DNA of 64,000 bases from Candidatus Limnocylindria bacterium (GTDB taxonomy: Bacteria > Chloroflexota > Limnocylindria > QHBO01): the NCBI GenBank assembly GCA_036274575.1, contig DASUFJ010000021.1, positions 8,347 to 72,346 of the forward strand, read 5' to 3'. The notes under the pieces are model-generated. The model searched no databases and was not told the origin of the DNA. It saw only the letters and a list, made by a program, of their open reading frames with translations. How positions within the stretch are numbered: the first letter of the stretch is position 1; each line of letters starts with the position of its first letter. The position numbers and the translations under genes are program-made. This document shows positions 7,975-62,492 of the stretch, in pieces.

Positions 7975-8028
7975 CGCGGCCGATTCTAGTCGCGACCCCC
8001 GACCCGCGGCGCTGCGCACAATGCACCG

Positions 8029-10174: not shown

Positions 10175-10192
10175 GCTCTCCGACACCCGTCC

Positions 10193-11275: not shown

Positions 11276-11288
11276 CCCAGCCGCCGCT

Positions 11289-14750: not shown

Positions 14751-14766
14751 CAGGCGTTGGGACGGG

Positions 14767-28262: not shown

Positions 28263-30141
28263 CGCCGAGCGCCTCCGCACCGCTGACGGTAGGCGGCACA
28301 TCGGGCTCAGCCTCCGGCGCGTCGGACGGCACGAGCGAGAGCGAGACGACGAACGTGCTGCCGCCGCCCGGCGTGGCCTCGACCCAGATGCGCCCGCCGT
28401 GCGCGTCCACGACGCGCCGGCAGATGTAGAGGCCCAGGCCGATGCCCGTGTCGGTGATGCTCTGGACGTTCGAGGCGCGGTAGAAGCGCTCGAAGATACG
28501 GTCGCGCTCCTCGTCCGGAACCCCCAGGCCGTGATCGACGACGGCCAGCCGGGCGTCACCGTCGACGACCTCGAGCTCGACGTCGGGGAGCACGTTGTCG
28601 GACGTGTACTTCATCGCGTTGTCGACGAGGTTGTGCAGCACCTGCGCGATGCGCGGCGCATCGATCCGGCTCGCGACCGGCTCGTCGGGAACCCGCGTGC
28701 GAATGTCGAGCCCGCGCTCGTGGAGGTCGTCGCGAACGTCCGTCACCACGTCGCGCAGGTCCGCCGGCACCGGGTCGATGGCGGCGACGCCCTGCTCCAG
28801 GCGCTGTGCGTCAAGCAGCTGCGTGACCAGCTCGCCCAGCCGCCGCGCCTCACGGGCAAGGCGGGCGATGCCGGCCGCGTCGACGGCCGCGTTCGGGTCG
28901 CGCTCGACACGTCGCTCGAGCAGCTCGGCCTGGCCCAGGACGACGGTCAGCGGCGTACGGAGGTCGTGGGCCGCCGCCGACAGGAATTCCTCCTTGAGGC
29001 GTGCCGCCTCCTCGCGCGCCGTGACCGCGTGCTCCACCTCGGCCAGGGCTCGCGACTCGAGAAGGACGCCGACCTGGTCGGCAAGGAGCTCGAGCAGCCA
29101 GAGGTCGTCCTCCACGAAGATCGAGGCGCGCTGTGCATAGATGCTGATCACGCCCAGCCGCCGGTCGTCGGCCGTGATGGGCGAGGAGATGACCGATTCC
29201 GCCTCCGAGCGCTGATAGACCTCGGCGTGCTCGGGGTCGGCCGCGCCGGCGTCGTGAACGAAGATGCGTCGCTGCTCGGTGAAGGCCCGCCCGGCGATGA
29301 ACGCGTCGTCCGGATGCTCGACCCAGCTTCCGTCGCGGGTCGCGTAGCGCAGGAGCCGGCGCTCGGGCACCGCGATCCCGATGCTGGCGCCACCCGCGCC
29401 GAAGGCCTCCGCCGCGGCGTTCTGCAGCTCGAGCACCATGCGCCGCTCGTCGGCCACCCAGGCGAGCTGCATCGACCGCTGGAGGAAGCGACGCAGCTCC
29501 GGCTCTCGCCAGGCGCGACGGATCCAGGCCGGCGGTGCGAAGCCCAGGAAGAACGAGACGACGGCTGCCAGGGCCAGGATCTGGCCCGCGATCGCCAGGT
29601 CGGGCGGCTCGACGAGGGCATCGATGAAGATGCTGACGATGGCGCCGATGAACAGCAGGGCGCCCATGAAGACCGCGGTCATCCGGCGCCGGGTGATCCC
29701 GCGCGCCTGCGTGGCGGCGATGCCGAAGGCATACGCGGCGTAGCCCCCGACACCCAGGAACCAGGCGATCGTGACGATCTCGTACAGCCGCTCGGCCGAC
29801 GCGATGCCCACGAACCCGAAGACGGCGACGGCCGCGAAGGCCACGTACGCCGCCACGAGCATGCCCCTTGGCGTCGGGCTGAAGTCGGCCACCAGCCGCA
29901 GCATCGCCAGCGGTGCGAGGTTGAGCAGCAGCAGGCTGATGCCGACGGTCCACGGCTCGCCGGCGATGTCGAGGCGGTCGGCGACCAGGCCGACGATGAC
30001 GATCGCGGCCACCGAGCCGAATAGGAGGACGATGTCCAGGCTCGTGCCCGACGGGTCCCGGAGGGCACGCCAAGCGACGGCCGCGAAGAGGCCGATGAAC
30101 AGGACCTGGTTCGCCAGGGCGATGAGCTCGAGTGCTGTCAT
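28255..30141 (-). CDS. sensor histidine kinase: about 7 TM helices, GAF-like domain, HisKA, HATPase_c
   Basis: Start MTALELIAL (ATG at 30141), followed by seven hydrophobic helices. A GAF-like segment ends in LLELLADQVGVLLESRALAE. H-box FLSAAAHDLRTPL. N/G boxes LHNLVDNAMKY, DHGLGVP and GIGLGLYIC. Confidence 0.88.
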   Translation of the reverse strand: MTALELIALANQVLFIGLFAAVAWRALRDPSGTSLDIVLLFGSVAAIVIVGLVADRLDIAGEPWTVGISLLLLNLAPLAMLRLVADFSPTPRGMLVAAYVAFAAVAVFGFVGIASAERLYEIVTIAWFLGVGGYAAYAFGIAATQARGITRRRMTAVFMGALLFIGAIVSIFIDALVEPPDLAIAGQILALAAVVSFFLGFAPPAWIRRAWREPELRRFLQRSMQLAWVADERRMVLELQNAAAEAFGAGGASIGIAVPERRLLRYATRDGSWVEHPDDAFIAGRAFTEQRRIFVHDAGAADPEHAEVYQRSEAESVISSPITADDRRLGVISIYAQRASIFVEDDLWLLELLADQVGVLLESRALAEVEHAVTAREEAARLKEEFLSAAAHDLRTPLTVVLGQAELLERRVERDPNAAVDAAGIARLAREARRLGELVTQLLDAQRLEQGVAAIDPVPADLRDVVTDVRDDLHERGLDIRTRVPDEPVASRIDAPRIAQVLHNLVDNAMKYTSDNVLPDVELEVVDGDARLAVVDHGLGVPDEERDRIFERFYRASNVQSITDTGIGLGLYICRRVVDAHGGRIWVEATPGGGSTFVVSLSLVPSDAPEAEPDVPPTVSGAEALGDA

Positions 30142-30205
30142 CCTGTCGCGGACGAGCGGTTGGCGCCCGATCCAGCACGCGGTGTGCCACTGAGCAAGCG
30201 GTTGG

Positions 30206-30775
30206 TCACGGCTCGGTGCCGCCGAGCGCCGCGTGCCGGAAGCAGCGCACCAGGTGGTCGTTGACGAGCCCGGCTGACTGCATGAAGGCGTAGCAGATCG
30301 TGGGGCCAACGAACCGGAAGCCCCGCTTCCGCAAGTCCTTCGACATGCGGGTCGATGCATCGGTCAGGTCCGGGACCTCGCCCATCTCGCGCCATCGGTT
30401 CTGGACCGTCCGTCCGTTCACGAAGGACCACAGGAAGCCATCGAAATCGTCGATCTCGGCCAGCGCGCGGGCGTTGTCGATGGTCGCGCCGATCTTCGCG
30501 CGGTTGCGCACGATGCCGGCGTCGGCCATCAGACGCGCGCGGTCCTCATCGGTGTAGGCCGCGACGCGCTCGGGATCGAAGCCGTCGAACGCCGCGCGGT
30601 AGCCGTCGCGCTTGCGGAGGACCGTGATCCACGCCAGGCCGGCCTGGGCTCCCTCCAGGCAGAGCAGCTCGAAGAGCGCGCGCCGATCGTGGATGGGGAC
30701 GCCCCACTCGTCGTCGTGATAGGCGCGGTACAGCGGGTCGCCCTCGGCCCAGTCGCAGCGGATCGGGTTGCTCAC
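30206..30775 (-). CDS. tag: DNA-3-methyladenine glycosylase I
   Basis: Motifs RCDWAEGDPLYRAYHDDEWGVP, FELLCLEGAQAGLAW and TICYAFMQSAGLVNDH. Confidence 0.92.
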   Translation of the reverse strand: MSNPIRCDWAEGDPLYRAYHDDEWGVPIHDRRALFELLCLEGAQAGLAWITVLRKRDGYRAAFDGFDPERVAAYTDEDRARLMADAGIVRNRAKIGATIDNARALAEIDDFDGFLWSFVNGRTVQNRWREMGEVPDLTDASTRMSKDLRKRGFRFVGPTICYAFMQSAGLVNDHLVRCFRHAALGGTEP

Positions 30776-32139
30776 AGCCGGAGCACCGCGCGCGCGACGA
30801 CGAAGTACACGACCAGGCCCGTCGCGTCGACCAGGGTCGTGATGAACGGCGCGCTGACGACCGCGGGATCGACCCCGACCCGACGCGCGACGAGCGGCAG
30901 CAGCGAGCCGACGAGCGCCGCGAGGGTGCAGACCGTGAGGAGCGTCACACTGACGACGATCGCGATCTCGCGCCCGACGAAGAGCCAGGTCGGCACGAAC
31001 GCCAGAAGGCCGAGCATGGTACCCAGGAGCAGCCCCACCCTCGCCTCCCGCAGCACGACGACGCCGAGGTCGTCGAAGCGCACTTCGCCTACGGCCAGGG
31101 CCCTGGTCACCGTGGTCGCCGCCTGCGCGCCGGTGTTGCCGCCGGTGCCGATGACGAGCGGGATGAACAGGGCGAGGGTTACGGCCTGGCTGAGCGTCTC
31201 CTCGAAGGCATGGAGGACGTTGACGGTCAGCGTGGCGGCCACAATGAGGACGAGCAGCCAGACAACCCGCGAGCGCGCGATGTGCATTACCGAGGTGGCG
31301 AGATAGGGCCTCCCCAACGGCTCCGCGCCGCCGGCGCGGGCGACGTCCTCCGTCTCCTCCTCCTCGAGGACCTCCATGGCGTCGTCGACGGTCACGACCC
31401 CGACGAGGCGGTCCTCCGAGTCGACAATCGGGAGCGCCAGCAGGTCCGCCTCGCGGATGAGGCGCGCGGCCTGCTCCTGGTCGGTGTCGACGCGGGCCGA
31501 GAAGACATCGATGTCCATGAGGTCGCCGACCAGGGCGTCGGGATCGGCGAGGACGAGATCGCGGAGGCCGAGCATGCCGAGCAAACGGCGCCGGTCGTCG
31601 GTCACCGGCAGCGCGTAGATCGTCTCCGCGGAGTGGCCGACCCGCCGCAGCCGCTCCAGGGCCTCGGTCGCGGTCATGCCGGCTCGCAGGCTGGCCACCT
31701 CCGGCGACATGAGGCGCCCCGCCGAGTCCTCGGGATACCCGAGGAGCGTCGCCGTCAGCCGGCGCTCGTTCGCCGACAGCCCGGCCAGCAGCCGATGCGC
31801 CACCTTGGCCGGCAGCTCCTCCGTGAGCCGGGCGCGGTCGTCGGGGTCCATCTCCTCGAAGAGCTGCCGGACGTTCGCCTCCCGCATCCCGTCGAGCAGC
31901 TCCTGCTGCAGCGACGGATCAAGGAGCTCGAAGACCTCGAGCGCCCGGTCGCGCGCCAGCAGGCGAAACGGCACCGCGCGGGCCTCGCGCGGCAGCCTCG
32001 ACAGCTCCTCGGCGATCCCGACCACATCCGCCTGTTCGAGCCAGCGACCGATGAGGTCGAGGTCGCCGCTCGTCAGGAGCTCATCCGGCTCGACGGTCGG
32101 GACCGCGTCCGGCGTGCCGGTGAGCGTGGGCCGCGTCAC
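30772..32139 (-). CDS. mgtE: magnesium transporter MgtE
   Basis: N-domain, tandem CBS region (ALPVTDDRRRLLGML, ALPIVDSEDRLVGVV) and C-terminal TM domain with GTGGNTGAQ. The start (GTG at 32139) is uncertain because no SD is visible. Confidence 0.9.
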   Translation of the reverse strand: MTRPTLTGTPDAVPTVEPDELLTSGDLDLIGRWLEQADVVGIAEELSRLPREARAVPFRLLARDRALEVFELLDPSLQQELLDGMREANVRQLFEEMDPDDRARLTEELPAKVAHRLLAGLSANERRLTATLLGYPEDSAGRLMSPEVASLRAGMTATEALERLRRVGHSAETIYALPVTDDRRRLLGMLGLRDLVLADPDALVGDLMDIDVFSARVDTDQEQAARLIREADLLALPIVDSEDRLVGVVTVDDAMEVLEEEETEDVARAGGAEPLGRPYLATSVMHIARSRVVWLLVLIVAATLTVNVLHAFEETLSQAVTLALFIPLVIGTGGNTGAQAATTVTRALAVGEVRFDDLGVVVLREARVGLLLGTMLGLLAFVPTWLFVGREIAIVVSVTLLTVCTLAALVGSLLPLVARRVGVDPAVVSAPFITTLVDATGLVVYFVVARAVLRL

Positions 32140-32163
32140 GCGCGGAGGATAGCCCGCAGATGA

Positions 32164-32192
32164 AGACGCCCGGGGCTCGGTCCCGGGCGTCT
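32164..32192. terminator. strong GC hairpin between the small ORFs and mgtE
   Basis: AGACGCCCGGG-gctcggt-CCCGGGCGTCT: an 11-bp perfect stem with a 7-nt loop. It lies 20 nt downstream of the sORF stop and 25 nt upstream of the annotated mgtE start. Confidence 0.5.
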
Positions 32193-32211
32193 GGGTCGTT
32201 TCGGCGGTCGA

Positions 32212-32805: not shown

Positions 32806-34038
32806 ATGGAGACGGACGCCGCCCTGCGCGAGCTCACCTTCCTGTTTGCCGACGTCGAGGGCTCGACCCGCCTCGCGGAGCGTCACGGCGCGCTGGCCGG
32901 CGCCGCCCTGGCGCGCTATCACGATCTCGTGGCCGAGATCGCGGATCACCACGGTGGTCGCCTCTTCGAACGCATCGGTGACGGCGCGTACGCCAGCTTC
33001 GCCGATGCGGCCGCGGCGGTGGCGGCGGCGGACGAGCTCCAGATGGCCATCGCCGAGGAGGACTGGGGACCCATCGGCCGCATGCGGATCCGCATAGCCC
33101 TCGTGTCCGGCGAGGTGGAGGTCCGCGAGGACCGCTACTACGGCCGGCCCCTGTTCCGTGCCGCACGGCTCCAGGCGCTGGCCAGTGGCGGCGAGACGCT
33201 CGTCTCGGGCGTGACGATCGACCGCATGGGCGGCCGCGTGCCGGACGGTGCCGTCCTCCGCGACCTGGGACAGCAGCGGCTGCGCGACGTGCCCGACCCC
33301 GAGCGGGTGTTCGCGCTGGTGCATACTTCCCGCGCGCGCCCGGCCGAGGCGCCCGAGAGGGAGACGGATGATCAGCAGGGGACGGTGAGGGTGACTGAGG
33401 AAGAGGGTCCGATTCGAGTGCTCCTGGTCGACGACCACGCGGTCGTTCGGCGCGGGCTGCGCGGGTTCCTCGAGCTGCTCAAGGACTTCGACGTGGTCGG
33501 CGAGGCCGAGAACGGCCGCGAGGGCGTCGCCGCCGCCGACCGGCTCGTCCCCGACGTGGTCCTCATGGACCTGCTCATGCCCGAGATGGGCGGCCTCGAG
33601 GCCATCTCGGCGATCAAGTCCTCGCATCCGGAGATCGAGATCGTCGCCGTCACGTCGTTCATCGAGGAGGAGAAGGTCACCTCCGCCCTCGAGGCCGGCG
33701 CGTCCGGCTACCTCCTGAAGGACGCCGAGGCGGAGGAGGTGGCCCAGGCCATCCGGGCCGCCTACAACGGCGAGGTCCACCTGGACCCGGCGGTCTCACG
33801 CCTCCTCGCACAGCGCCTCCGCCAGCGGCGCGATGCGGAGCCGGTGGAGCCGCTCACCGGTCGCGAGAAGGAGGTCCTCGCCCAGCTCGCCAAGGGAGCC
33901 TCCAACAAGGAGATCGCCTACGAGCTCGGCATCACCGAGCGCACCGCCCGGACGCACGTCTCGAACATCCTGGGCAAGCTCGGCCTCGCGTCCCGGACGC
34001 AGGCCGCGCTCTACGCGGTCGAGCACAAGCTCGTCTGA
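32806..34038 (+). CDS. cyclase-homology domain fused to a NarL/LuxR-type response regulator (CHD-REC-HTH)
   Basis: Cyclase-like motifs FLFADVEGSTRL, GGRLFERIGDGAYASF and YYGRPLFRAARLQALASGGETLVS. REC: LLVDDH, VLMDLLMP, VTSF, LLKD. LuxR HTH: LTGREKEVLAQLAKGASNKEIAYELGITERTARTHVSNILGKLG. Alternative in-frame starts are TTG 32776 and GTG 32800. Confidence 0.88.
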   Translation: METDAALRELTFLFADVEGSTRLAERHGALAGAALARYHDLVAEIADHHGGRLFERIGDGAYASFADAAAAVAAADELQMAIAEEDWGPIGRMRIRIALVSGEVEVREDRYYGRPLFRAARLQALASGGETLVSGVTIDRMGGRVPDGAVLRDLGQQRLRDVPDPERVFALVHTSRARPAEAPERETDDQQGTVRVTEEEGPIRVLLVDDHAVVRRGLRGFLELLKDFDVVGEAENGREGVAAADRLVPDVVLMDLLMPEMGGLEAISAIKSSHPEIEIVAVTSFIEEEKVTSALEAGASGYLLKDAEAEEVAQAIRAAYNGEVHLDPAVSRLLAQRLRQRRDAEPVEPLTGREKEVLAQLAKGASNKEIAYELGITERTARTHVSNILGKLGLASRTQAALYAVEHKLV

Positions 34039-34349: not shown

Positions 34350-34404
34350 GCCCGCGAGGACCGTCGACCGTAACCAGGCCCACAGCTCCGCACGGCACGA
34401 AGAG

Positions 34405-34432
34405 GCGCCCCGTCCCGGACCGGACGGGGCGC
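34405..34432 (-). terminator. GC-rich hairpin, likely terminator of the convergent genes
   Basis: GCGCCCCGTCC-cggacc-GGACGGGGCGC: an 11-bp perfect stem. On the minus strand it is followed by CTCTTCGT. Confidence 0.55.
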
Positions 34433-34444
34433 TGAGAGAACGAA

Positions 34445-34472
34445 GGAGTGGACCGAGGGACCGGCCCACTCC
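34445..34472 (-). terminator. second hairpin just after the stop of the membrane-protein gene
   Basis: GGAGTGG-(14 nt)-CCACTCC, located 15 nt downstream (minus strand) of the TAG at 34489-34487. Confidence 0.4.
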
Positions 34473-34486
34473 TCGATGGCCGTTGC

Positions 34487-34918
34487 CTAGGCGGTAGTGG
34501 GGCGCGACATCCCTGGGATGAACTCGGCGACCGAGTCAAGGGCTGCGCTGACGAAGGCCTTCGGGCTTCCGTAGACGCGGAGGATGTCAACGCCGACGAG
34601 GACGATCAGCGCGACCTCGATCCCTTTGGCGATCCAGCCGAGGGTGAAGTACGGGCCGATGACCAGGTAGCCGACGATGGTGGTGGCGGCGTAGCCCATC
34701 AGGGCGATCCGCGGAAACCAACTGAAGCGCTTGACGAGCGCCGTCGGAGCCAGGGCGCCGATCACGTAGAGGCCGGCGAGGCCGATGTAGCCGAGGCCGT
34801 TCAATGTGAAGAGCATGCCGCCGAGGCCGAGGTGGATGTACGCCGTGGCGCCGCTGAGGGCGACGATCGCGGCGGTGAGCATCACGCCGGCGGTTCGGCT
34901 GCGCATGAACTGGGGCAT
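34487..34918 (-). CDS. hypothetical membrane protein (4 TM helices)
   Basis: ATG at 34918-34916 preceded by GGGAGG. Translation begins MPQFMRSRTAGVMLTAAIVALSG. The longer ORF up to 35452 is Arg-rich and lacks support. Confidence 0.7.
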   Translation of the reverse strand: MPQFMRSRTAGVMLTAAIVALSGATAYIHLGLGGMLFTLNGLGYIGLAGLYVIGALAPTALVKRFSWFPRIALMGYAATTIVGYLVIGPYFTLGWIAKGIEVALIVLVGVDILRVYGSPKAFVSAALDSVAEFIPGMSRPTTA

Positions 34919-35134
34919 CTGGGACCTCCCGGTTGGATGGCTCGACGCCGGCGGCCGGCATCGGTTGATTTCGACCCCCTCAGTCTCCCGGTCCTCGACC
35001 GGTGTGCCATTCGGCAGACGGGCGACCTTCGAGGGCGACATACGCGGCAGGTTCGGTCGGTCAAATGACGTAGCCACGGCGGCCTGCCTGCCGATGGGGA
35101 GCCCGGAGCCCGATGGCGTATCCTTCCCGCGGCC

Positions 35135-38100
35135 ATGACCCGAGCGCCATCCCGACCAGGGCCAGCGACGGCTCCGCCCATCGGCGCGGTGCAGCCGCCG
35201 GATACCCACGCCATGCTGGCGCATGCGGTCGACGAGGCGGCGCGACTTCTGAAGGCCGACGGCGCGATGGTCTACCTGGTCGACGGCGAGCGGATGCGCT
35301 TCGCGGTCGATGCGGGGATCAAGAACGCCGAGGCGCAGCAGCTCATCCGCGACATGTCGCTGGATACGGGCGTCGGGCTCTTTGGCCATGCCGTTGCGAC
35401 CCGGGAGCTCGTCGTCACCGGCGACTACCGGAAGGACAAGCGGTTCTCCCACTCACCGACCGCGGACCGCATCGCCGACATCGCCAGCATGCGCTCGATG
35501 GCCGCCGCGCCGCTCATCTCGGGCGACGAGGTGCTGGGAGCCATCGGCGCCTATTCCTCGAGGCTCGATGACTTCACCGAGGCGGAGCTCGCACTGCTCC
35601 GCGCCCTGGCCGACCACGCAGCTGCCGCGATCGGCAACCAGCGGCTCATCGAGCGACTGGCCCGATCGCAGGAGGAGCTGGCGCGGAGGGTCGAGGCCCA
35701 GCGCACGCTGGGCGAGATCGCGGCACGCATCGCGGTGATCCGCGAGCCGGAGGCGGTGCTCCGGTCGGTGGTCGACGCGGCGCGCCGTCTCATCGGCTCC
35801 GACGGTGCGCACATGACCGAGATGCTGCCCGGTGGGATGGCGCTGCGACCGACCGTGGTCGTCGGCGGCAATCCGGCGTGGACGGAGGAGTGGCTGGCAC
35901 AGCTCCAGTTTCCGGTCAACGACGGCATCAACGGGCTTGCCGCCGGCACCGGCGCCGTCGTCGCCACCGAGGACTACCCGCTCGACCCGCGCATCCCCCA
36001 CGAGCCGACCGACCAGACCGTCGCCGAGCGCCTCGAGCTGCGAGGCATGGCCGCGGCTCCCCTGCGCGGCCCGGAGGGGAGGGTGATGGGCACGCTCGCC
36101 GTGTCCTTCGAGCGTCCGCATCGGTTCGGTGGCGACGAGCTGGAGCTCCTCCAGGGCCTCGCCGACCAGGGTGCCATCGCCATCGCGAACGCCAGGCTGA
36201 CCGAGGAGCTGCAGACGCACTCCGACGAGCTCGCACGCCGGGTCGACACGCAGCGAACGCTGGCCGAGATGGCGGCGCAGCTGACCTCGGTACGCGATCC
36301 GTCGGCGGTGCTGATCCAGACGCTCAAGGCGGCGGTGCGCCTGCTCAAGGGCCACGGCGGACAGATCGGCATGGTCTTCGCCGACGAGGAGGGCACGCTC
36401 CGCTGGGGCGATGGCCACTCGCTCGTCCACGGACGGCTGGTCCCGTTCACCAAGCAGGATCGCACGCGCGTGGACGACGGGATCTCTGGCAGATCAGTCC
36501 GCGAGCGCCGGCCGTCCTGGACCGACGACTACCTCGCCGACCAGTCGTTCCCCCACGACGACCGCTCGGACGAGGTCGGGCGCAGGCTCGGCATCCGGTC
36601 CGTCATGGCCGCGCCGCTCATCGGTGAGGAGGGCGCCGTGGGCGCCATCGGTGTGTACTCCGAGGAGCCTGGCGTCTTCGATGCCGATGACGGCGATCTG
36701 CTGGGCCTCCTGGCGGCGCAGGCGACCATCGTCCTCAGCAACGCCCGTCTCAACGCGGAAGCGGAGGTCTTCGCCGAGCAGCTGGCGCACCAGGTCGAGG
36801 CACAGCGCACGCTGGGTCGCATCGCCGCCTCGATCACCTCGCTGCGCGACCCGTCCGCGGTCCTGAGCCGGACGGTCGACGAGACGAAGCGCCTTCTTCA
36901 CGCCGACCACGTGATCATCCACCAGGTGCGCCCGGGGACCCACGAGCTCGCCGACTTCCGCGACGTGCTCACCGTCGGGGCCGATACGCCGGCGGCCGAT
37001 GAGGTCACGGTCAGCATCGGACAGGGAATCGCCGGGAGGGCGATCTCGGAGCAGCGCGTGTCATGGACGGGCAACTACCTCGCTGATGAGTCGTTCCAGC
37101 ACACGACGAGGGCCGACGAGTGGATCACGCGCTTCGGCTACCGATCGCAGATGAGCGCGCCGCTCATCGGTGAGGAGGGCGCGCTGGGCGCCATCAGCGC
37201 CTACTCGACGCGGTCCGACGCCTTCGGCGACGAGGACAGCGAGCTGCTCGGGGCTCTCGCCAGCCAGGCGGCGATCGTGCTGGGCAACGCCCGCCTCTAT
37301 GAGGAGCTCGAGCACCGGGTCGAGGCGCAGCGCTCGCTCGGCGCGATCGCCGCCCGCATCACGGCCATCCGCGAGCCCGGCGACGTCCTCCAGCGAACCC
37401 TCGACGAGGCGGTCCGCCTCCTGGACGCGGATGGCGGCCGGATCGAGCTCGTCTCCGAAGGGGGTGGCCTGCACTGGGCCTTCGGGCATTCGGCCATCGA
37501 CCTGCCCATCGAGCGAGCGGTGGGCGAGAGCCCCGTCGCCGCGGACGAGGGCGTCTCCGGTCGCGCGGTGGCCGAGCGCCGGGTGGTCCGCACCGGCGAC
37601 TATCTCGCCGACGAGGGCTTCTCCCACGCCGAGGCTCCGGACCGATACATCCGCCAGCACGGCATCCGGTCAGTCATGAGCGCGCCGCTCATCGGTGAGC
37701 TGGGAGCCATCGGCTCGCTCACCGTCCACTCTCAGACGCGCGAGGCGTTCGACGAGTCCGATGCCGAGCTCCTCGAGGTCCTCGCCAGCCAGGCGGCGAT
37801 CGCGGTCACCAACGCCAGGCTGTACGAGCAGCTGCGCGACCGCATCGACGCCCAGCGGACGCTCGCCTCCATCACCGCCGAGATCGCCGCGCTCCACGAG
37901 CCGGCCACCGTGCTCCAGCGCACCGCGGAGGAGGCACTGCGCCTGCTGCACGCCGATGCCGCGATCATCAACCCGCTCGAGGAGGACGAGACGCTCCTCG
38001 GGTGGCCGATCGCCTACGCGCCGTCGGACGGCCCGGCGGACGACGTTCCGGTGCGAGTCGGCCATGGCGTCAGCGGCCGGGCGATGTCCGAGCGCCGCGT

Positions 38101-40417
38101 CGTGCGCACCGGTGACTACCTCACCGATGCCGCCTTCGACCACGACGGTGAGCTGGACGACTACATCCGGCGCCGCGGGAGCCGATCGGTGATGAGCGCA
38201 CCACTCATCAGCAGCGCCGGTGGACTCGGCGTCCTGACCGTCCAGTCCGCCCGGGCGAACGCCTTCGACGAGGGCGACGCCGAGCTGCTGCGCCTCCTGG
38301 CCGACCAGGCGGCGATCGCCATCACGAACGCGCGTCTCTACGACGAGCTCGGCGACGAGTCGGCGGCGCTCGCGCGCCAGACCGATTCCCAGCGGCGACT
38401 GCTCGAGATCAACCAGGAGCTCCTGTCGACGCTGGAGCCGGAGGGCGTCCTCAACCTCATCGCCGACGGAATGAAGACCGTGGTCTGGTACGACAACCTC
38501 GCCATCTACCGGGTCGACGACAACGAGGAGATGCTCACCCCGGTCCTGGCGCGGGACCAGAACGCGGCGGCCGTGCTCGAGTTCCCGGTCCCGAAGGGAA
38601 GCGGCCTGACGTGGTGGACGATCGAGCACCGCGAGCCGGTGCTGCTCAACGATGCGCTCGACGATCCGCGCCTCGTCCAGATCCCGGGCACACCGCTCGA
38701 GGAGGAGGCGATCATCTCCGTGCCCCTCATCTCGGGCGACGAGGTCGTGGGCGCCATGAACATCAGCCGCACGGGCGGCGCCGAGGTCTCCTTCACCGAC
38801 GTCGACTTCGAGCTCGTCCGCCTCTTCGCCGCGCAGGCCGCGGTGGCGATCACCAACGCCCGCCTCTACGAGCAGCTGCGGGAGCGCATTGACGCGCAGC
38901 GCTCGCTGGCCGAGATCGCCGCACAGATCGCCTCGCTGCACGAGCCGCAGACGGTCCTCGATCGCGCGGTGGCCGACGCGGCGAGGCTGCTGCGAGCCGA
39001 TCGGGCCCAGATCAACCTGCTCGGTGACACCCCTGGGCACCTCGACCCGCCGATCGCCGCGGCGCCCGTCCCGCCCTCGCAGGAGGACGTGGTCGTGCCG
39101 ATCGGGTCCGGCATCGCGGGGATGGCCGCCGCCGAGCGGACGGTTCGCTGGACCGGCGACTATCTGGCCGACGACGCGTTCCCCCACGACGAGGGCGACA
39201 CCTGGATCGAGGCCCAGGACATCCATTCCATGATGTCGGCGCCGCTGCTCGGCCCGGACCGCCTCATCGGAACGATCACGGTCCAGGCCGTGGAGCGGGC
39301 GGCCTTCGGCACCGAGGACGCCGAGCTCCTCCAGCTCCTCGCCGACCAGGCGGCGATCGCGCTCACCAACGCGCGCCTGTACGCCGAGCTGGAGGAGTCG
39401 GAGCGCCGCTACCGCCACCTGGTCGACTACTCGCCCGACATCGTGTGGAGCCTCGACGCCGACGGCATCATCACCTACGTCAGCGACTCGCTCGAGCCGC
39501 GCTCGGGCTGGAAGCCGGAGCAGATCATCGGTCAGCCGTACTCGGTCATGATCAACGCGGATCGTCCGGAGGCCGTCGCCGTGTGGGAGGCGGTCCGGGA
39601 GCGACCCACCGAGGAGCACCGCCTGCGGACCGAGATGCCGCTGCTCGACGGCCGCCGCGCCCAGGTGGAGGTGGCGATGACCGGCACCATCGTCGATGGC
39701 AAGTTCGCCGGCGCTCATGGATCGGTCCGCGACATCAGCGAGCGGGAGCGGCTCGAGGGCGACCTGCGCAGCCAGGCGGCGGAGCTCGCGGCCAGCCAGG
39801 AGCGCGCCCACCTCGCACGCGAGCTGCACGACTCGGTCACGCAGGCGCTGTTCAGCATGGGGCTGACGCTCCGCACGCTCGAGCTGCTTCTGAACTCGGA
39901 CCCGGAGGGGGCGCGGACGAAGCTGATGGAGCTGCGGGAGCTCCAGAAGGATGCCCTGGCCGAGATGCGCACGCTCATTTTCGAGCTGCGTCCGTCGTCG
40001 CTCGAGTCCGACGGCCTGGTCCAGGCGCTGCGGACCCACGCCACGGCGGTCCAGCGGCGGACGGGCCTGGTCATCGTCGTCGACGCGGAGCCGATCGAGC
40101 GCATGCCGCTGCCCGCGGAGGAGGCGCTGTACCGCATCGGCCAGGAGGCGCTCCACAACGTCGTGAAGCACGCCAATGCCGCGAACGCCACCATCAAGAT
40201 CTGGATCGAAGCCGATCGGGTCCACCTCGCGGTGACCGATGACGGCGAGGGCTTCGACCCGGCCGACGTGCCGCGCGGTAGTCACCTGGGCCTCATCGGG
40301 ATGCGACAGCGCGTGGATCTCGTCGGCGGCGAGCTGCGCGTCGAGAGCCACAAGGGGACTGGTACGACCATCGCCGCCTCGGTACCGCAGGTCGGAGCGT
40401 CTGAATCGGCGGAATGA
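35135..40417 (+). CDS. soluble sensor histidine kinase with eight tandem GAF modules, one PAS, HisKA_3 and HATPase_c
   Basis: 1760 aa. Eight recurrences of the motif ..LL..LA.QAAIA..NARLY.. plus linker R.VEAQRTL..IA..I....EP..VL. PAS-like YRHLVDYSPDIVWSLDADGIITYVSDS. H-box ARELHDSVTQALF. N/G boxes LHNVVKHANA, DDGEGFD and GLIGMRQRV. An alternative start is ATG 35213 (MLAHAVDEAARLL). Confidence 0.92.
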   Translation: MTRAPSRPGPATAPPIGAVQPPDTHAMLAHAVDEAARLLKADGAMVYLVDGERMRFAVDAGIKNAEAQQLIRDMSLDTGVGLFGHAVATRELVVTGDYRKDKRFSHSPTADRIADIASMRSMAAAPLISGDEVLGAIGAYSSRLDDFTEAELALLRALADHAAAAIGNQRLIERLARSQEELARRVEAQRTLGEIAARIAVIREPEAVLRSVVDAARRLIGSDGAHMTEMLPGGMALRPTVVVGGNPAWTEEWLAQLQFPVNDGINGLAAGTGAVVATEDYPLDPRIPHEPTDQTVAERLELRGMAAAPLRGPEGRVMGTLAVSFERPHRFGGDELELLQGLADQGAIAIANARLTEELQTHSDELARRVDTQRTLAEMAAQLTSVRDPSAVLIQTLKAAVRLLKGHGGQIGMVFADEEGTLRWGDGHSLVHGRLVPFTKQDRTRVDDGISGRSVRERRPSWTDDYLADQSFPHDDRSDEVGRRLGIRSVMAAPLIGEEGAVGAIGVYSEEPGVFDADDGDLLGLLAAQATIVLSNARLNAEAEVFAEQLAHQVEAQRTLGRIAASITSLRDPSAVLSRTVDETKRLLHADHVIIHQVRPGTHELADFRDVLTVGADTPAADEVTVSIGQGIAGRAISEQRVSWTGNYLADESFQHTTRADEWITRFGYRSQMSAPLIGEEGALGAISAYSTRSDAFGDEDSELLGALASQAAIVLGNARLYEELEHRVEAQRSLGAIAARITAIREPGDVLQRTLDEAVRLLDADGGRIELVSEGGGLHWAFGHSAIDLPIERAVGESPVAADEGVSGRAVAERRVVRTGDYLADEGFSHAEAPDRYIRQHGIRSVMSAPLIGELGAIGSLTVHSQTREAFDESDAELLEVLASQAAIAVTNARLYEQLRDRIDAQRTLASITAEIAALHEPATVLQRTAEEALRLLHADAAIINPLEEDETLLGWPIAYAPSDGPADDVPVRVGHGVSGRAMSERRVVRTGDYLTDAAFDHDGELDDYIRRRGSRSVMSAPLISSAGGLGVLTVQSARANAFDEGDAELLRLLADQAAIAITNARLYDELGDESAALARQTDSQRRLLEINQELLSTLEPEGVLNLIADGMKTVVWYDNLAIYRVDDNEEMLTPVLARDQNAAAVLEFPVPKGSGLTWWTIEHREPVLLNDALDDPRLVQIPGTPLEEEAIISVPLISGDEVVGAMNISRTGGAEVSFTDVDFELVRLFAAQAAVAITNARLYEQLRERIDAQRSLAEIAAQIASLHEPQTVLDRAVADAARLLRADRAQINLLGDTPGHLDPPIAAAPVPPSQEDVVVPIGSGIAGMAAAERTVRWTGDYLADDAFPHDEGDTWIEAQDIHSMMSAPLLGPDRLIGTITVQAVERAAFGTEDAELLQLLADQAAIALTNARLYAELEESERRYRHLVDYSPDIVWSLDADGIITYVSDSLEPRSGWKPEQIIGQPYSVMINADRPEAVAVWEAVRERPTEEHRLRTEMPLLDGRRAQVEVAMTGTIVDGKFAGAHGSVRDISERERLEGDLRSQAAELAASQERAHLARELHDSVTQALFSMGLTLRTLELLLNSDPEGARTKLMELRELQKDALAEMRTLIFELRPSSLESDGLVQALRTHATAVQRRTGLVIVVDAEPIERMPLPAEEALYRIGQEALHNVVKHANAANATIKIWIEADRVHLAVTDDGEGFDPADVPRGSHLGLIGMRQRVDLVGGELRVESHKGTGTTIAASVPQVGASESAE
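35213..39380 (+). repeat. intragenic array of eight GAF-coding modules (period about 520-550 nt)
   Basis: Linker motifs recur near 35686, 36238, 36790, 37312, 37840, 38380 and 38883. Similarity is at the protein level and partly visible at the DNA level. Boundaries are approximate. Confidence 0.7.
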
Positions 40418-40480
40418 CGTAGTCGGCGCTGCGCCATAGCGCCAGTGGTCGTCCGCAGGCCAGCGGCATAGGCTCAGTTC

Positions 40481-40870
40481 ATGCCGCTCAGCCCGCTGCC
40501 CGATTCGAGGACCCCTCCGCGGGTGCTGATCGTGGATGCGGACCGTCGCGTGCAGCAGAGCCTTTCAGACCTCCTCGGCATCACCGGGGAGGTCGACGTC
40601 GTGGGGCGCGCCGGCGACGTCCGCGCGGCGCTCGAGCAGGTCGAGATGTCGCATCCCGATGTCGTCCTCATGGACCCGCGACTTCCCGACATCGAGGCCG
40701 GGGTCGCGCTCATCGGGGGCATGAGCCGCGCGTGGCCGGGCCTGCGGATCGTGCTCACCGGCTGGAGCGACACGGAGGGCCACGCACTGACGAACGTGCC
40801 CACCCGATACGTGAGCAAGGACGGCACACCCGAGGAATTCGTCCGCGCCGTCCTCAGGGCCTGCGCGTAG
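40481..40870 (+). CDS. single-domain response regulator (receiver only, NarL-like REC without HTH)
   Basis: RVLIVDAD, phospho-acceptor in VVLMDPRLPD, T in VLTGW, K in YVSKD. Ends after the REC fold (129 aa). Starts 63 nt downstream of the GAF kinase. Confidence 0.88.
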   Translation: MPLSPLPDSRTPPRVLIVDADRRVQQSLSDLLGITGEVDVVGRAGDVRAALEQVEMSHPDVVLMDPRLPDIEAGVALIGGMSRAWPGLRIVLTGWSDTEGHALTNVPTRYVSKDGTPEEFVRAVLRACA

Positions 40871-40919
40871 TCCTCAGCCCTCGACCGCCAACCTGGCCGC
40901 GCCCCGTTGACGGCGCCCG

Positions 40920-41954
40920 TCAGAGATCCAGAGCCTGCCGCACCGACGCGAAGTCGGGCGGGATCGGTGTGAGCGAGCCCTCGTCGGCCTGGATGGCGTC
41001 CGGATCCTTCAGGCCATGACCGGTCAACACGCAGACCACCACCTCCTGCGGGCCGATGCGTCCGTCGCGTCGCAGGGTGCGCACGCCGGCCACGCCGGCA
41101 GCGGACGCGGGCTCGCAGAAGACACCCTCCATCGCCACCACCATGCGCTGCGCCTCGAGGATCTCCTCGTCGCTCACCGCCTCGATGCTGCCACCGGACT
41201 CGTCGCGCGCCGCGGTCGCACCCGCCCATGACGCCGGGTTGCCGATGCGGATCGCGGTCGCCACCGTCTCCGGTGACTCAACCATCTCGCCGCGAACGAT
41301 CGGCGCCGCGCCCTCGGCCTGGAAGCCGAGCATCCGCGGCCGGCCGCGTTCGTATCTGACGAAGCCGCGCCAGTAGGCGGTGATGTTGCCGGCGTTGCCC
41401 ACCGGCAGGGCGAGCGCATCCGGCGCACGGCCCAGCACGTCGACGACCTCCCACGCCGCGGTCTGCTGTCCCTCGAGTCGATCGGGGTTGATCGAGTTGA
41501 CGACGACCGCGACGCCCTCGTCCCCGAGCCGGCGGACCGCGTCGAGCGCCGCGTCGAAATTGCCATCGACCATCGTCAGCCGAGCTCCGGCGGCCAGCGC
41601 CTGCGCCAGCTTGCCACGAGCCACCTTCCCGGCCGGCAGGATGACGTGGCAGGGGAGTCCGGCCGCCGCCGCGTATGCCGCCGCCGAGGCCGACGTATTG
41701 CCGGTCGACGCGCAGACGACGGCCTGCGCGCCCGCGCTCAGGGCGCGGTTGACGGCGAGCACCATGCCGCGATCCTTGAACGAGCCGGTTGGGTTCGTGC
41801 CCTCGAACTTCAGGTGGAGCGCGTTGAGGCCGATCTCGGCGCCGAGACGCCGCGCATGGATGAGCGGGGTGCCTCCCTCGCCGAGCGTCAGGCGGAACGA
41901 CTCGTCGTCGCGCGCCAGGAGGCTGCGGTAGCGCTCGAGGAGTGGTGGGATCAC
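40920..41954 (-). CDS. thrC: threonine synthase
   Basis: PLP-lysine motif FEGTNPTGSFKDRG, plus ASTGNTSAS and GNAGN. Confidence 0.93.
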   Translation of the reverse strand: MIPPLLERYRSLLARDDESFRLTLGEGGTPLIHARRLGAEIGLNALHLKFEGTNPTGSFKDRGMVLAVNRALSAGAQAVVCASTGNTSASAAAYAAAAGLPCHVILPAGKVARGKLAQALAAGARLTMVDGNFDAALDAVRRLGDEGVAVVVNSINPDRLEGQQTAAWEVVDVLGRAPDALALPVGNAGNITAYWRGFVRYERGRPRMLGFQAEGAAPIVRGEMVESPETVATAIRIGNPASWAGATAARDESGGSIEAVSDEEILEAQRMVVAMEGVFCEPASAAGVAGVRTLRRDGRIGPQEVVVCVLTGHGLKDPDAIQADEGSLTPIPPDFASVRQALDL

Positions 41955-41988: not shown

Positions 41989-44900
41989 CTATCGCTCGGT
42001 CAGCGCCTCGCGGACGATCCGGGCCTGCTCGACATGGTGCGTCGCCGGGTAGCCCTCGGCCGGGCGGGATCGTTCGGGCCGCGAGATGTCGCCGAGCGGG
42101 ATCTTGTACGGCACGAGATGTCGGATGCGGGGCAGGACGAACTTGCGGGCCCCCATGTTCCGCGGCTCCTCCTGGACCCAGGCGAACGACTCGATCTTCG
42201 GATAGCGATCGAGGATCGGCTGCAGGTCCTCCGCGGGGAACGGGTAGAGGCGCTCCACCCGGACGACGGCGACGTCCTTGGCAGCCTCGAAGTCCGGCGA
42301 GGCGAGGAGGTCGTAGTAGACCTTTCCGCTGCACAGCAGGAGACGGCGCACGCGGCCGGCGGCGCGGTCGCTGGAGAAGCGCGGATCGTCGAGGACCGAA
42401 CGGAAGGCGCCGTCGGCCAGCTCGCCCGGACGAGACGCCGCCTGCGGCAGGCGGAGCAGCGACTTCGGCGTCATGACCACCAGCGGCCTCGCGTCGGGGT
42501 GGCGGGCCTGGCGGCGGAGGAGGTGGAAGTACTGTGCCGGCGTGGTGGGGTAGACGACGCGGATGTTGCCCTCCGCGCCGAGCGCCAGGAACCGCTCGAG
42601 CCGCGCCGACGAGTGCTCCGGCCCCGATCCCTCGTAGCCGTGCGGCAGGAGGAGGGTGAGCCGTGACGTCTGACGCCACTTGGCGAGGCCGGAGACGAGG
42701 AACTGGTCGATGATGATCTCGGCCCCGTTGACGAAGTCCCCGTACTGCGCCTCCCACAGGACGAGCGCGTCGGGCGCCGCTACGGCATAGCCGTACTCGA
42801 AGCCGAGGCAGGCGTATTCGGACAGCGGCGAGTTGTGGAGCTCGAAGCTCGCCTTCGCGCCGGGGAGGTGCTGGAGCGGAACGTGGGGCTCGCCGGTCCC
42901 GGCATCCCACAGCCCCGCGTGGCGCTGGCTGAACGTGCCACGCACCGTGTCCTGGCCGGTGAGCCGCACCGGAATCCCCTCGCGAAGCAGGGATGCAAAG
43001 GCCAGGAGCTCGGCGTGCGCCCAGTTGACCGATGGCTGGTCGCGGTCCAGGGCGTGGACGCGCTGCTCGAGCTGCTTGACCAGCTTGGGATGCACCGCGA
43101 ACCCGTCGGGAACGTTGGCCATCCCCGCGTTGAGGTCGCGGAGTGTCTCGAGCGGCACCGGGATCTCCGGCTCGCCGACGTCCTCGGGCGGCAGCGCCTC
43201 CGGACCGCGGTCGAGCTCCGGCTCCGGCTCCTCGGCGCGCTTGCGCACGGTCGCCTGCCGTTTCGCGAGGTCGCGCTGTGCGTCCTTCACCAGCTTGTCG
43301 GCCTGCGCCTCGGAGATGACCCCGGCCTCGACCAGCCTGGCCTGATAGAGCTCACGGACCGATGGATGGTCGTCGATCGCGGCATACATGGCCGGCTGCG
43401 AGTACGCCGGCTCGTCGCCCTCGTTGTGCCCGTATCGGCGGTAGCCGACGAGGTCGATGACGACGTCGTGCCCGAATCGCTCTCGGTACATCATCGCCAG
43501 GCGCGCCGCGGCCAGGCACGCCTCCGGATCGTCGGCGTTGACGTGGACGATCGGCGCGTCGAAGCCCTTCGCCAGGTCCGAGGAGTAGTCGGTCGAGCGT
43601 CCCTCGCGCGTGCCGGTCGTGAAGCCGACCTGGTTGTTCGCGATGAGATGGACCGTGCCGCCGGTGGCATAGCCATCCAGCCTGGCGAGGTTGAGCGTCT
43701 CGGCCACCACTCCCTGGGCGGCGAACGCCGCGTCGCCATGGATGAGGATCGGGAGCGTCGTGTCGTGGTCGACCGTCACGATCGGGCGCGATCTGTCCGT
43801 CTGCTCGGCGCGCGTTCGGCCCTCGATCACCGGGTTCACGGCCTCCAGGTGGCTCGGATTCGGCGACAGGATGACCCGCACCTCCGCGTCGTCGCTGGCG
43901 AGGAACGAGCCCTCGGCGCCGAGGTGGTACTTCACGTCGTCGGAGCCGCCCTTCGGCGCCGTCGGCGCATCGGTCCCGGCACGTCCCGCCTCGAACTCCG
44001 CGAGGATGGCCTCGTAGCTCACGCCCACGACGTGGGCCAGCACGTTGAGCCGTCCGCGGTGCGCCATGCCGATCATCACGCGCCGCGCACCCTGGTCGGC
44101 GGCGTCCCCGAGGATGACGTCCAGCATCGGGACCATGGTGTCGAGGCCCTCGATGCTGAACCGCTTCTGGCCCAGGTACGCGCGATGAAGGAAGCGCTCC
44201 AGGGCCTCCACGCTGACCAGGCGCTCGAAGAGGGCGAGCTGGTCCTCGGCCTCCATCGGCCTCCGATGCTCGCCCGACTCGATGACCCGGCGCAGCCAGA
44301 CGCGCTCCTCGTGGGAGCCGATGTGTTCGACCTCGTAGGCGATCGTCCCCGAGTACGTGTCGCGAAGGCGGGGCAGCGCCTCGCCGAGCGTTGCGCCGGG
44401 CACGTAGATCCGCATGAGCTCGGCCGGGATGCCCGCCATGTTCGCCTCAGTCAGACCCAGCGGACCCGGGTCGAGGGCCGGGTCACCGGGCGGTTCGGAG
44501 CCCAGCGGGTCGAGATGCGCGGCAAGGTGGCCGAAGTGCCGGTACGCCTTGACCAGCGCCATCCCGGCCGCCACCGCCTTCAGCGGCTCGTCGGCGTCGC
44601 CGGCGGTCGCGGGCGGCGGCGCGGCGATCGCCTCGGCGGGCGCCGGCATGGGCTCGCCCGTCGTCACGTCCGCAGCTCGGGCCCCGAGAGCAGCGAAGAC
44701 ATCGGCATAGAAGGCGTCCTCTCCGGACAGCAGCGCCTCGACGCGACGCAGGAAGGCTCCGGACTCGGCGCCCTGGATGATCCGGTGGTCGTAGGTCGAG
44801 GTGATCGTCATGCGGCGCTCGCCGCCCACGTCGCGGATCGCTCCCGTCGCGACGATGGTGCCCTGGTTCGGCATCAGCCGCGGCACGCTCATCGTCGTGC

Positions 44901-45651
44901 CCAGCGTCCCGGGATTCGTGAGGGTGATCGTGGCGCCCACGAAGTCGTCCGCGGCGAGCTTGTTCGTCCGCGCCTTCTCGACGAGCTCCTCGTAACGCTG
45001 ATGGAACGCGTCGAAGGTCACCTCGTCGGCGTCCCTGATGACCGGCACCACCAGGAACCGACCGCCCGGACGCTCCACGTCCACCGCGAGCCCCAGGTTG
45101 ATCGCGCCAGGATCCACCCGATACGGCGTCCCCTCGACGGTCGTGAAGAAGTGGCTCATCGAGCGCTGCTCGGCCGCGGCGCGCACGATTGCCCAGCCGA
45201 CGAGGTGGGTGAAGCTGACCTTGCGCGGCGCGATCTGCGCGTTGAGCTCGCGCCGCCGCGCCTCGAGCGTCGTTACCGGGATCTCGCGCACGCTCGTCGC
45301 CGTAGGCACGTCCAGGCTGGCCGCCATGTTCCGCGCCAGGGCCGCGGCAGGCCCCTTGATCGCGGTCGCGCCCTCCGGCACGGGTGGCTCGGCGGACGCC
45401 GGCGGCGCGGGCGGTGCGGCTGCTGCGGCAGCCTGCTGCTGGTCGCCGTTCGCCGTCGGCGGCGTCGCCGCTACCGGCTCCAAGCCCGTGGCGCCGGAGT
45501 CGAACAGCGTGCGCCACTCCGGATCGACGCTTGCGGGGTCGAGCCGGTAGCGCTCGTAGAGATCGGCGACGTAGCCCGCGTTGACGAGGTTGAGCTCGTC
45601 CAGCGGCTCGCTCGTCGCGGATGGAGCGGGCTGATCGGGGTCGGTCGGCAT
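41989..45651 (-). CDS. kgd: multifunctional 2-oxoglutarate dehydrogenase/decarboxylase E1 with N-terminal E2-like acyltransferase domain (Kgd/OdhA type)
   Basis: 1220 aa. The N-terminal succinyltransferase-like core contains STYDHRIIQGAESG. This is followed by an E1o ThDP region (GMAHRGRLNVL, HGDAAFAGQGVV, GYRRYGHNEGDEP, LLLPHGYEGSGPEHSS). Confidence 0.95.
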   Translation of the reverse strand: MPTDPDQPAPSATSEPLDELNLVNAGYVADLYERYRLDPASVDPEWRTLFDSGATGLEPVAATPPTANGDQQQAAAAAAPPAPPASAEPPVPEGATAIKGPAAALARNMAASLDVPTATSVREIPVTTLEARRRELNAQIAPRKVSFTHLVGWAIVRAAAEQRSMSHFFTTVEGTPYRVDPGAINLGLAVDVERPGGRFLVVPVIRDADEVTFDAFHQRYEELVEKARTNKLAADDFVGATITLTNPGTLGTTMSVPRLMPNQGTIVATGAIRDVGGERRMTITSTYDHRIIQGAESGAFLRRVEALLSGEDAFYADVFAALGARAADVTTGEPMPAPAEAIAAPPPATAGDADEPLKAVAAGMALVKAYRHFGHLAAHLDPLGSEPPGDPALDPGPLGLTEANMAGIPAELMRIYVPGATLGEALPRLRDTYSGTIAYEVEHIGSHEERVWLRRVIESGEHRRPMEAEDQLALFERLVSVEALERFLHRAYLGQKRFSIEGLDTMVPMLDVILGDAADQGARRVMIGMAHRGRLNVLAHVVGVSYEAILAEFEAGRAGTDAPTAPKGGSDDVKYHLGAEGSFLASDDAEVRVILSPNPSHLEAVNPVIEGRTRAEQTDRSRPIVTVDHDTTLPILIHGDAAFAAQGVVAETLNLARLDGYATGGTVHLIANNQVGFTTGTREGRSTDYSSDLAKGFDAPIVHVNADDPEACLAAARLAMMYRERFGHDVVIDLVGYRRYGHNEGDEPAYSQPAMYAAIDDHPSVRELYQARLVEAGVISEAQADKLVKDAQRDLAKRQATVRKRAEEPEPELDRGPEALPPEDVGEPEIPVPLETLRDLNAGMANVPDGFAVHPKLVKQLEQRVHALDRDQPSVNWAHAELLAFASLLREGIPVRLTGQDTVRGTFSQRHAGLWDAGTGEPHVPLQHLPGAKASFELHNSPLSEYACLGFEYGYAVAAPDALVLWEAQYGDFVNGAEIIIDQFLVSGLAKWRQTSRLTLLLPHGYEGSGPEHSSARLERFLALGAEGNIRVVYPTTPAQYFHLLRRQARHPDARPLVVMTPKSLLRLPQAASRPGELADGAFRSVLDDPRFSSDRAAGRVRRLLLCSGKVYYDLLASPDFEAAKDVAVVRVERLYPFPAEDLQPILDRYPKIESFAWVQEEPRNMGARKFVLPRIRHLVPYKIPLGDISRPERSRPAEGYPATHHVEQARIVREALTER

Positions 45652-62417: not shown

Positions 62418-62492
62418 TGGGGAGTGGCCAAGCGGTAAGGCGCCTGACTCTGGATCAGGAGACCGAAGGTTCGAATCCTTCCTCCCCAGCCA
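62418..62492 (+). tRNA. tRNA-Gln (anticodon CTG), CCA encoded
   Basis: Hand-folded cloverleaf. Acceptor TGGGGAG/CTCCCCA; 3-bp D stem GCC/GGC; anticodon stem CCTGA/TCAGG with loop CT-CTG-GA (anticodon 62450-62452); T arm GAAGG-TTCGAAT-CCTTC; discriminator G then CCA. Confidence 0.9.

Follow-up and report, generated by a model that had tools for sequence, protein, structure and literature searches.

Within a 64,000-nucleotide stretch of contig DASUFJ010000021.1 from a Candidatus Limnocylindria bacterium (hereafter the window, G+C ~70%), the gene at 35135..40417 encodes a multi-GAF sensor histidine kinase of 1760 amino acids (aa), which we read, with moderate confidence, as a dimeric kinase of the DesK/DevS class that relays signals along a helical spine from its many sensor modules. 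The gene is that of an intact, large cytoplasmic bacterial sensor kinase. Its open-reading frame (ORF) begins with an ATG at 35135 and ends with a stop at 40415-40417, has no internal stops and no in-frame start codon between the upstream stop and 35135, and the residues MTRAP open both the kinase and the orthologue consensus. A frameshift or interruption had been named as a possible flaw, within the available sequence the frame is uninterrupted over 1760 aa. The exact kinase sequence was absent from a collection of 15 billion proteins in which the adjacent 129-aa receiver protein was present; a different start called in the source record, or omission of the kinase gene from it, may be the cause of the missing match.

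The protein had been proposed, from a reading of the sequence only, to be a soluble kinase with eight GAF domains followed by PAS, HisKA_3 and HATPase_c domains, and Pfam profiles bear out this domain order. The eight end-of-GAF helices quoted in that reading were all recovered exactly (aa 154, 338, 522, 704, 879, 1051, 1227 and 1398), spaced 184, 184, 182, 175, 172, 176 and 171 aa apart, and the eight-copy family is also visible in the DNA, at spacings of 552 to 513 nt and an identity of only 60-72%. A check for fewer than eight GAF domains found eight stretches reported by each of the GAF_2, GAF and GAF_3 profiles; GAF_2 matched the whole protein at E=1.4e-142, and the whole-protein scores of PF13185, PF01590 and PF13492 were 469, 418 and 262 bits against cut-offs of 28.6, 22.4 and 27. 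Such a pattern of helices and domains is far beyond chance expectation. Module boundaries were set from a module alignment and an in-house hidden Markov model (HMM), and the features of the gene are as follows.

35135..40417, + strand: multi-GAF sensor histidine kinase gene, complete ORF, 1760 aa
35192..35659, + strand: GAF1, aa 20-175 (module alignment and HMM)
35660..36211, + strand: GAF2, aa 176-359, including an N-terminal linker helix of the long (18-residue) class
36212..36763, + strand: GAF3, aa 360-543
36764..37309, + strand: GAF4, aa 544-725
37310..37834, + strand: GAF5, aa 726-900
37835..38350, + strand: GAF6, aa 901-1072
38351..38878, + strand: GAF7, aa 1073-1248
38879..39391, + strand: GAF8, aa 1249-1419
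39392..39769, + strand: PAS domain, aa 1420-1545 (Pfam PAS, TIGR00229 and AlphaFold2)
39800..40003, + strand: HisKA_3 dimerisation/phosphoacceptor domain, with the H-box at 39815-39844 (His1565)
40118..40390, + strand: HATPase_c catalytic domain (Pfam and conserved segments)

The C-terminal domains were equally clear in Pfam: the PAS match (aa 1425-1521) scored 42.2 bits against a cut-off of 22.6, with TIGR00229 in agreement, the HisKA_3 match (aa 1556-1623) 63.6 bits against 24, and the HATPase_c match (aa 1662-1752) 58.2 bits against 26.4. The claimed H-box ARELHDSVTQ lies at aa 1561-1570, and the HATPase_c domain includes the segments HNVVKHA, DDGEGF and GLIGMRQR, which we take to be the N, G1 and G2 boxes. 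The closest solved pair of dimerisation/phosphoacceptor (DHp) and catalytic (CA) domains is that of DesK (E=3.5e-18). By these sequence matches the kinase is classed as HisKA_3 (DesK/NarX/DevS type), autophosphorylation and phosphotransfer being predicted activities. Weak Pfam matches to DUF3369 and Trans_reg_C, in which no single stretch passed, were rejected as spurious and probably stem from the repeated helix. Membership of the MadS family (NCBIfam NF047786) was likewise rejected, at 225.5 bits against an equivalog cut-off of 500, as were MctS, LiaS, RamA, NorR and other NCBIfam equivalogs, which all scored far under their cut-offs. The highest Kyte-Doolittle mean over 19 residues is 1.44, from which we read the kinase as lacking a transmembrane segment, in keeping with the earlier claim. 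The protein also contains no Cys residue in its 1760 aa; across 122 sequences (120 homologues, the query and one unrelated receiver protein) 48 had none and 62 had one.

The helices which join the GAF domains obey a strict length rule. Measured across the family from the N of NARL to the EP of the next GAF, the distance was 29 residues in 284 junctions, 36 in 290 and 43 in one, the few other distances being anchor pairs that were not counted as GAF-GAF junctions. From NARL to the V of VEAQRTL it was 11 residues in 204 cases, 18 in 285, 25 in one, 32 in three and 39 in one, which is 11+7n in all 494 of the 494 junctions measured. Judged by these sequence distances, inter-GAF helix lengths differ by whole heptads only. 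The window's kinase has long linkers after GAF1, 2, 3 and 6 and short linkers after GAF4, 5 and 7. The conserved polar motif QR[TS]L occurs in five of its seven inter-GAF linkers, flanked by hydrophobic residues at a spacing of 3-4, whilst the GAF6-GAF7 linker carries SQRRL and the orthologue consensus into GAF6 is AQQAL. The S-helix of Anantharaman, Balaji and Aravind (2006) is a parallel coiled-coil linker of ~40 residues with ERT in its central heptad (PMC1592074); its signature is ERT whereas here it is QRT, one residue off relative to the V, so this is a resemblance and not an identity.

AlphaFold2 models, built as monomers with orthologue alignments and in pieces which together span GAF6 to the CA domain, agree with this picture. 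The GAF6-GAF7-GAF8 model (mean predicted local distance difference test score, pLDDT, 81.8; predicted template-modelling score, pTM, 0.39) has GAF domains at a pLDDT of ~80-93 and junction helices of 54 and 47 residues, which differ by seven. The GAF8-PAS-DHp-CA model (mean pLDDT 80.1, pTM 0.50) has a helix of 40 residues from GAF8 to PAS and one of 54 residues from PAS into DHp alpha1, which carries His1565. The unbroken helices at these four junctions, together with the seven-residue length steps, support the earlier suggestion of continuous helical linkers. When the models of GAF6, 7 and 8 were tested for the GAF fold, in which helices flank an antiparallel beta-sheet, they matched GAF structures with Foldseek E-values down to 1e-17, and against the Protein Data Bank (PDB) the ranking was CyaB2 1ykd (E=1e-17), PDE2A 1mc0, PDE6 and PDE5, with phytochrome GAF-PHY pairs ranked next.

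Comparison of the modules with each other and with their orthologues shows an old array in which each position is distinct. Pairwise identity between modules is 25-55% in protein and 60-72% in DNA, which upholds the view that they are not recent duplicates. GAF7 is the outlier, with 25-30% identity to the other seven; the motif DYxxDxxFxH is present in seven modules (as NY in GAF4), in place of which GAF7 has DALDDPRLVQ, with the Y and H missing. A homologue search of ~5.8 billion proteins gave 710 matches at E<=1e-30, the named ones mostly from Candidatus Limnocylindria or Chloroflexota assemblies and carrying no annotation beyond ‘GAF domain-containing protein’ or ‘PAS domain S-box-containing protein’. 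A scan of species-representative genomes with peptide patterns returned only two true relatives, because the patterns were very specific. We counted GAF domains in the 120 best homologues and the query with an HMM made from the eight query modules, and found five in 5 sequences, six in 17, seven in 52 and eight in 47. When homologue modules were assigned to their best query module the order was strictly collinear, with median bit-score margins of 88-223. Modules 1-8 were complete in 44 homologues, only GAF6, the module most often missing among orthologues, was absent in 42, and smaller groups lacked GAF2, GAF3, GAF7 or others. Changes of module number in the family thus read, from these alignments, as clean gains or losses of whole modules within a range of 5-8 GAFs.

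In the 46 eight-module homologues, the median identity of each GAF to the query module at the same position was 74-86%, highest for GAF5 (85.7%), whilst the medians of the other domains were 79% for the ATPase, 92.6% for DHp and 66.5% for PAS. Low identity between paralogous modules combined with high identity between orthologous modules at the same position implies that the duplications are ancient and that each module has been kept. An alignment common to all modules had 49 universal columns, 18 that were module-specific yet kept within the module and 6 that were variable, and the segment which is module-specific but conserved in orthologues lies on the alpha2/alpha3 side. Each position of the array is, judging from these comparisons, under its own purifying selection. 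The family also varies in an additional PAS domain of 126-127 aa, inserted between GAF2 and GAF3 in 68 of the 121 sequences (37 of these are among the 47 eight-GAF sequences), for example in the L001 gene at 6001-11640; it is absent from the window's kinase and from nine other eight-GAF homologues.

Several known systems share parts of this architecture. DevS (DosS) and DosT of Mycobacterium tuberculosis (GAF-A, GAF-B, HisKA_3, HATPase_c) are likewise soluble kinases of the HisKA_3 class with tandem GAF inputs and a partner regulator of the NarL/LuxR type (PMC8534201), and the helix that recurs in the window's kinase is nearly identical to AAAAGIAVANARLYQQ, the C-terminal helix of DevS GAF-A. 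They have two GAFs, however, where the window's kinase has eight and a PAS domain, and the haem-ligating His of DevS is unaligned in every module of the kinase, in which no sign of haem was found. The tandem GAF-A/GAF-B regulatory segments of PDE2A, PDE5, PDE6 and cyanobacterial CyaB2, the best structural matches, have GAFs joined by one long connecting helix which forms the dimer axis; they differ in having two GAFs, cyclic nucleotide monophosphate (cNMP) binding through the NKFDE motif and a phosphodiesterase or cyclase output, whereas the window's kinase lacks NKFDE and has a kinase output. The multi-GAF cyanobacteriochrome PtxD (NpF2164) offers a likeness in its long serial array of seven non-identical GAFs, each an independent sensor (PMC5812497), which shows that GAFs arranged in series can truly act as multiple sensors. 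Multi-GAF cyanobacteriochromes bind bilin covalently via Cys and have a methyl-accepting chemotaxis protein or HisKA output, in contrast to the Cys-free kinase of this Chloroflexota lineage. DesK of Bacillus subtilis is alike in the kinase core only, where both have an HDxxxQ H-box, but it lacks GAF and PAS domains and relies on transmembrane helices for sensing. Poly-GAF hybrid kinases, for example in Variovorax robiniae, place the same GAF_2-type module in series before a kinase core; these have 10-22 modules, and the C-termini examined (P0133, P0144 and P0137) are HisKA hybrids with two receiver domains, whereas the window's kinase has eight modules, a HisKA_3 core and no fused receiver.

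Three genes close to the kinase bear on its possible partners.

32806..34038, + strand: cyclase-like-REC-LuxR/GerE regulator, with a degenerate class III cyclase-homology domain, a receiver (REC) domain and a helix-turn-helix (HTH)
34490..34918, - strand: hydrophobic protein of 143 aa, conserved, divergent from the kinase and syntenic in L001 and L002
40481..40870, + strand: stand-alone receiver protein of 129 aa, 63 bp 3' of the kinase and found in the orthologous loci examined

The receiver keeps the acidic pocket, acceptor Asp, Thr and Lys, and by position and sequence is likely to be the operon partner of the kinase. The REC and GerE regulator lies 1.1 kb upstream, is syntenic in the orthologous loci L001-L004 and is a probable NarL-class partner, to which phosphotransfer is predicted. 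Its domain order (class III cyclase-homology, REC, LuxR/GerE HTH) is unusual; proteins in which such a domain is fused to REC, some of them with GerE as well, make up a family whose named members are from Limnocylindria or Chloroflexota assemblies. The N-terminal domain of the regulator matches entries deposited as the Ma1120 cyclase (E=9e-14), and its Guanylate_cyc score of 20.2 falls just below the Pfam gathering score of 21.9. Relative to the residues which we take to be catalytic in Ma1120, five orthologues keep the metal-binding Asp but have Pro at the catalytic Asn position, and Glu and Arg at the substrate Lys and Asp positions. This domain is unlikely to be a canonical cyclase. The 143-aa protein had no significant Pfam match (DUF7475, E=0.77) and is read from its sequence as a putative membrane protein.

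Gene order around the kinase is the same in L001 and L002, the orthologous loci with a listed gene content, and runs as follows (coordinates are those of the window unless L001 is named).

1. 28255-30363, - strand: GAF-HisKA kinase with one GAF, HisKA, HATPase_c and an unassigned N-terminus of ~300 aa
2. 30772-32211, - strand: MgtE magnesium transporter
3. + strand: regulator of ~410 aa with a cyclase-like domain, REC and LuxR HTH
4. L001 4895-5278, - strand: cupredoxin, present in L001 but missing from L002 and from the window
5. - strand: 143-aa hydrophobic protein
6. + strand: multi-GAF kinase
7. + strand: stand-alone receiver, 115-130 aa
8. - strand: pyridoxal phosphate-dependent enzyme
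9. 41989-45651, - strand: Kgd-type 2-oxoglutarate dehydrogenase with a fused acyltransferase domain, 1219 aa

The 1219-aa dehydrogenase is Kgd/OdhA-like by our reading; in L001 (13431-16857) the gene is broken up into a number of short calls, and the L001 assembly may therefore contain frameshift errors. Elsewhere in the window (11289-14822, - strand) a 1176-aa ORF combines a double zinc ribbon, a class III cyclase domain which retains the catalytic Asn (GDLVNVAAR) and an AAA_16 (STAND-like) ATPase. A promoter and terminator scan of 34400-41100 found nothing exceeding the shuffled expectation, and in an Rfam scan of the window the only match at the gathering score was a tRNA (62418-62489, + strand).

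Put together, the reading which we favour would work as follows. Eight non-redundant GAFs and one PAS form the input region ahead of the HisKA_3 core of what would be a parallel homodimer, whose linker helices would make up a continuous coiled-coil spine at its centre, by analogy with the tandem GAFs of PDE2A and PDE6 and with phytochromes. When a GAF or PAS module binds its ligand or cofactor, the packing or register of the spine would shift, and these shifts, added together, would be passed to the DHp helix with His1565 and set the balance of kinase against phosphatase activity. The HDxxxQ H-box confers phosphatase activity in HisKA_3 kinases. From His1565 the phosphoryl group would pass to the stand-alone receiver, likely co-transcribed with the kinase, and probably also to the nearby cyclase-like-REC-LuxR regulator, through which transcription would change. 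A number of observations weigh against this. The models are of monomers, with a pTM of 0.39 and 0.50 and a mid-linker pLDDT of 41-59, so that the relative orientation of the domains is not fixed by them; the 3.5-residue hydrophobic periodicity of single linkers is modest to weak by Fourier analysis; and the tandem-GAF dimer of CyaB2 is antiparallel (PMC1592074), so a parallel rod is not guaranteed here. Orthologues work with 5-7 modules, so that none is indispensable except perhaps GAF1, 5 and 8, and dispensable modules would equally fit partly structural roles.

This last point leads to the alternative that survives best, which we regard as possible but doubtful: most GAFs would be ligand-free modules for structure, dimerisation or spacing, with only one or two that sense (for example GAF7, GAF5 or the PAS domain), and the array would serve as a long rigid lever, or to set the gain, and not as a multi-input integrator. 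The tolerated clean loss of GAF6, GAF2, GAF3 or GAF7 in orthologues is in its favour, as are the failure to find a known ligand signature in any module and the fact that the helices, along with the generic core motif of GAF_2, are where conservation across all modules is strongest. Yet every module is conserved among orthologues to the same degree as the catalytic domain, and the alpha2/alpha3-side segment is module-specific and kept, which is unexpected of mere spacers. At the other extreme the kinase could be a multi-input logic device, in which the PAS and most of the eight GAFs would have distinct metabolites or cofactors as ligands, a heptad-registered coiled coil would add up the states of these modules mechanically, the inputs would be rewired by insertion or deletion of whole modules that preserves the register, and the degenerate cyclase domain of the regulator could add second-messenger or dimerisation feedback; taken as a whole, we consider this unlikely.

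Inspection of the modules for cNMP-binding and haem-binding signatures, as the sequence-only reading had suggested, turned up no cNMP motif and, in the alignments with DevS, no His at the position of the haem ligand. The NKFDE motif (N[KR]x5-24Fx3DE) has no match anywhere in the 1760 aa in strict or relaxed form, which disfavours cNMP binding of the phosphodiesterase type, and covalent bilin or thiol chemistry is rejected as the kinase has no Cys. It is improbable that the system is a cNMP feedback loop in which the cyclase-homology domain of the phosphorylated regulator makes a cNMP that is bound by one or more kinase GAFs, with GAF7 as the best candidate. The syntenic pairing of regulator and kinase, the Ma1120 match of the regulator with both metal-binding Asp kept, and the best PDB match of GAF7 (5w10, deposited as a cGMP-specific phosphodiesterase; DevS GAF-A is also among its closest PDB sequences) would all fit such a loop; the Pro at the catalytic Asn position and the Glu and Arg at the substrate positions in five orthologues, the sub-threshold Guanylate_cyc score and the lack of NKFDE in any GAF speak against it.

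A haem-based gas or redox sensor like DevS/DosT, with haem in one module and GAF5 (His842) as the candidate, we rate as very improbable. DevS GAF-A is the best PDB sequence match of GAF5 (E=8e-5) and a strong match of GAF7, the two kinases share the HisKA_3 class and the soluble GAF-kinase layout, and the GAF5 segment YIRQHGIRS (aa 838-846), in which RQHGIRS is almost invariant among orthologues, aligns beside the haem-His region of DevS GAF-A. In the phmmer alignment, however, the DevS residue which we take to be the proximal haem ligand falls on Gln841, with the conserved His842 adjacent, and on a residue other than His in GAF7; moreover the similarity comes largely from the shared C-terminal helix, and haem would account for only one of the eight modules. 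Finally, although repetitive genes can in principle be mis-assembled, and nothing else was found in favour of it, an assembly artefact or decaying pseudogene is effectively excluded by these sequence features: the DNA copies are only 60-72% identical, which makes collapse or expansion unlikely, G+C at third codon positions is 0.91, typical of the window's other probable coding regions, and 44 homologues from independent assemblies have the same eight collinear modules.

The size of the array is unremarkable, as longer arrays are already in public databases. The statement in the sequence-only reading that GAF domains usually occur singly or in pairs holds for characterised proteins, but not for sequence space, in which many proteins have 9-22 modules. 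A profile of the eight modules matched 14,383 of 1.84 billion representative proteins at E<=1e-30, and most of the best 150 matches had 9-22 modules; proteins with 10-22 modules, P0148, P0181 and P0133 among them, reach lengths of up to 3952 aa. A recount with our in-house HMM gave up to 20 modules, with at least 10 in 108 of the 168 sequences fetched. A RefSeq protein of Variovorax robiniae (WP_340333471.1, 3673 aa) has 16 GAFs by Pfam or 18 by our in-house profile, followed by HisKA, HATPase_c and two receiver domains, and the cluster of a 3475-aa poly-GAF protein includes members from Herpetosiphon. In P0148 and P0181, the two giants in which the C-terminal linker was read, it carries the classical ERT signature. 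Literature searches on non-cyanobacterial arrays of at least five GAFs found almost only papers on cyanobacteriochromes and phytochromes, and those on Limnocylindria and histidine kinases found nothing; non-photoreceptor poly-GAF kinases are apparently annotated but unstudied.

Nothing in the domains, in the class of kinase or in the geometry of the tandem GAFs is new, this is no new kind of system, and the existence of such a kinase would not greatly surprise a specialist. Its value lies in unusually clean family evidence of position-specific modules, gain and loss of whole modules and heptad-locked linkers. Serial arrays of sensor domains are common in genomes, and how their signals are combined is poorly understood. 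The orthologous group is a natural experiment, with eight distinguishable modules, variants which have lost a single module, variants with an extra PAS and linker classes that differ by whole heptads, and the kinase family is therefore a reasonable model for testing how signals pass through many domains along one coiled coil.

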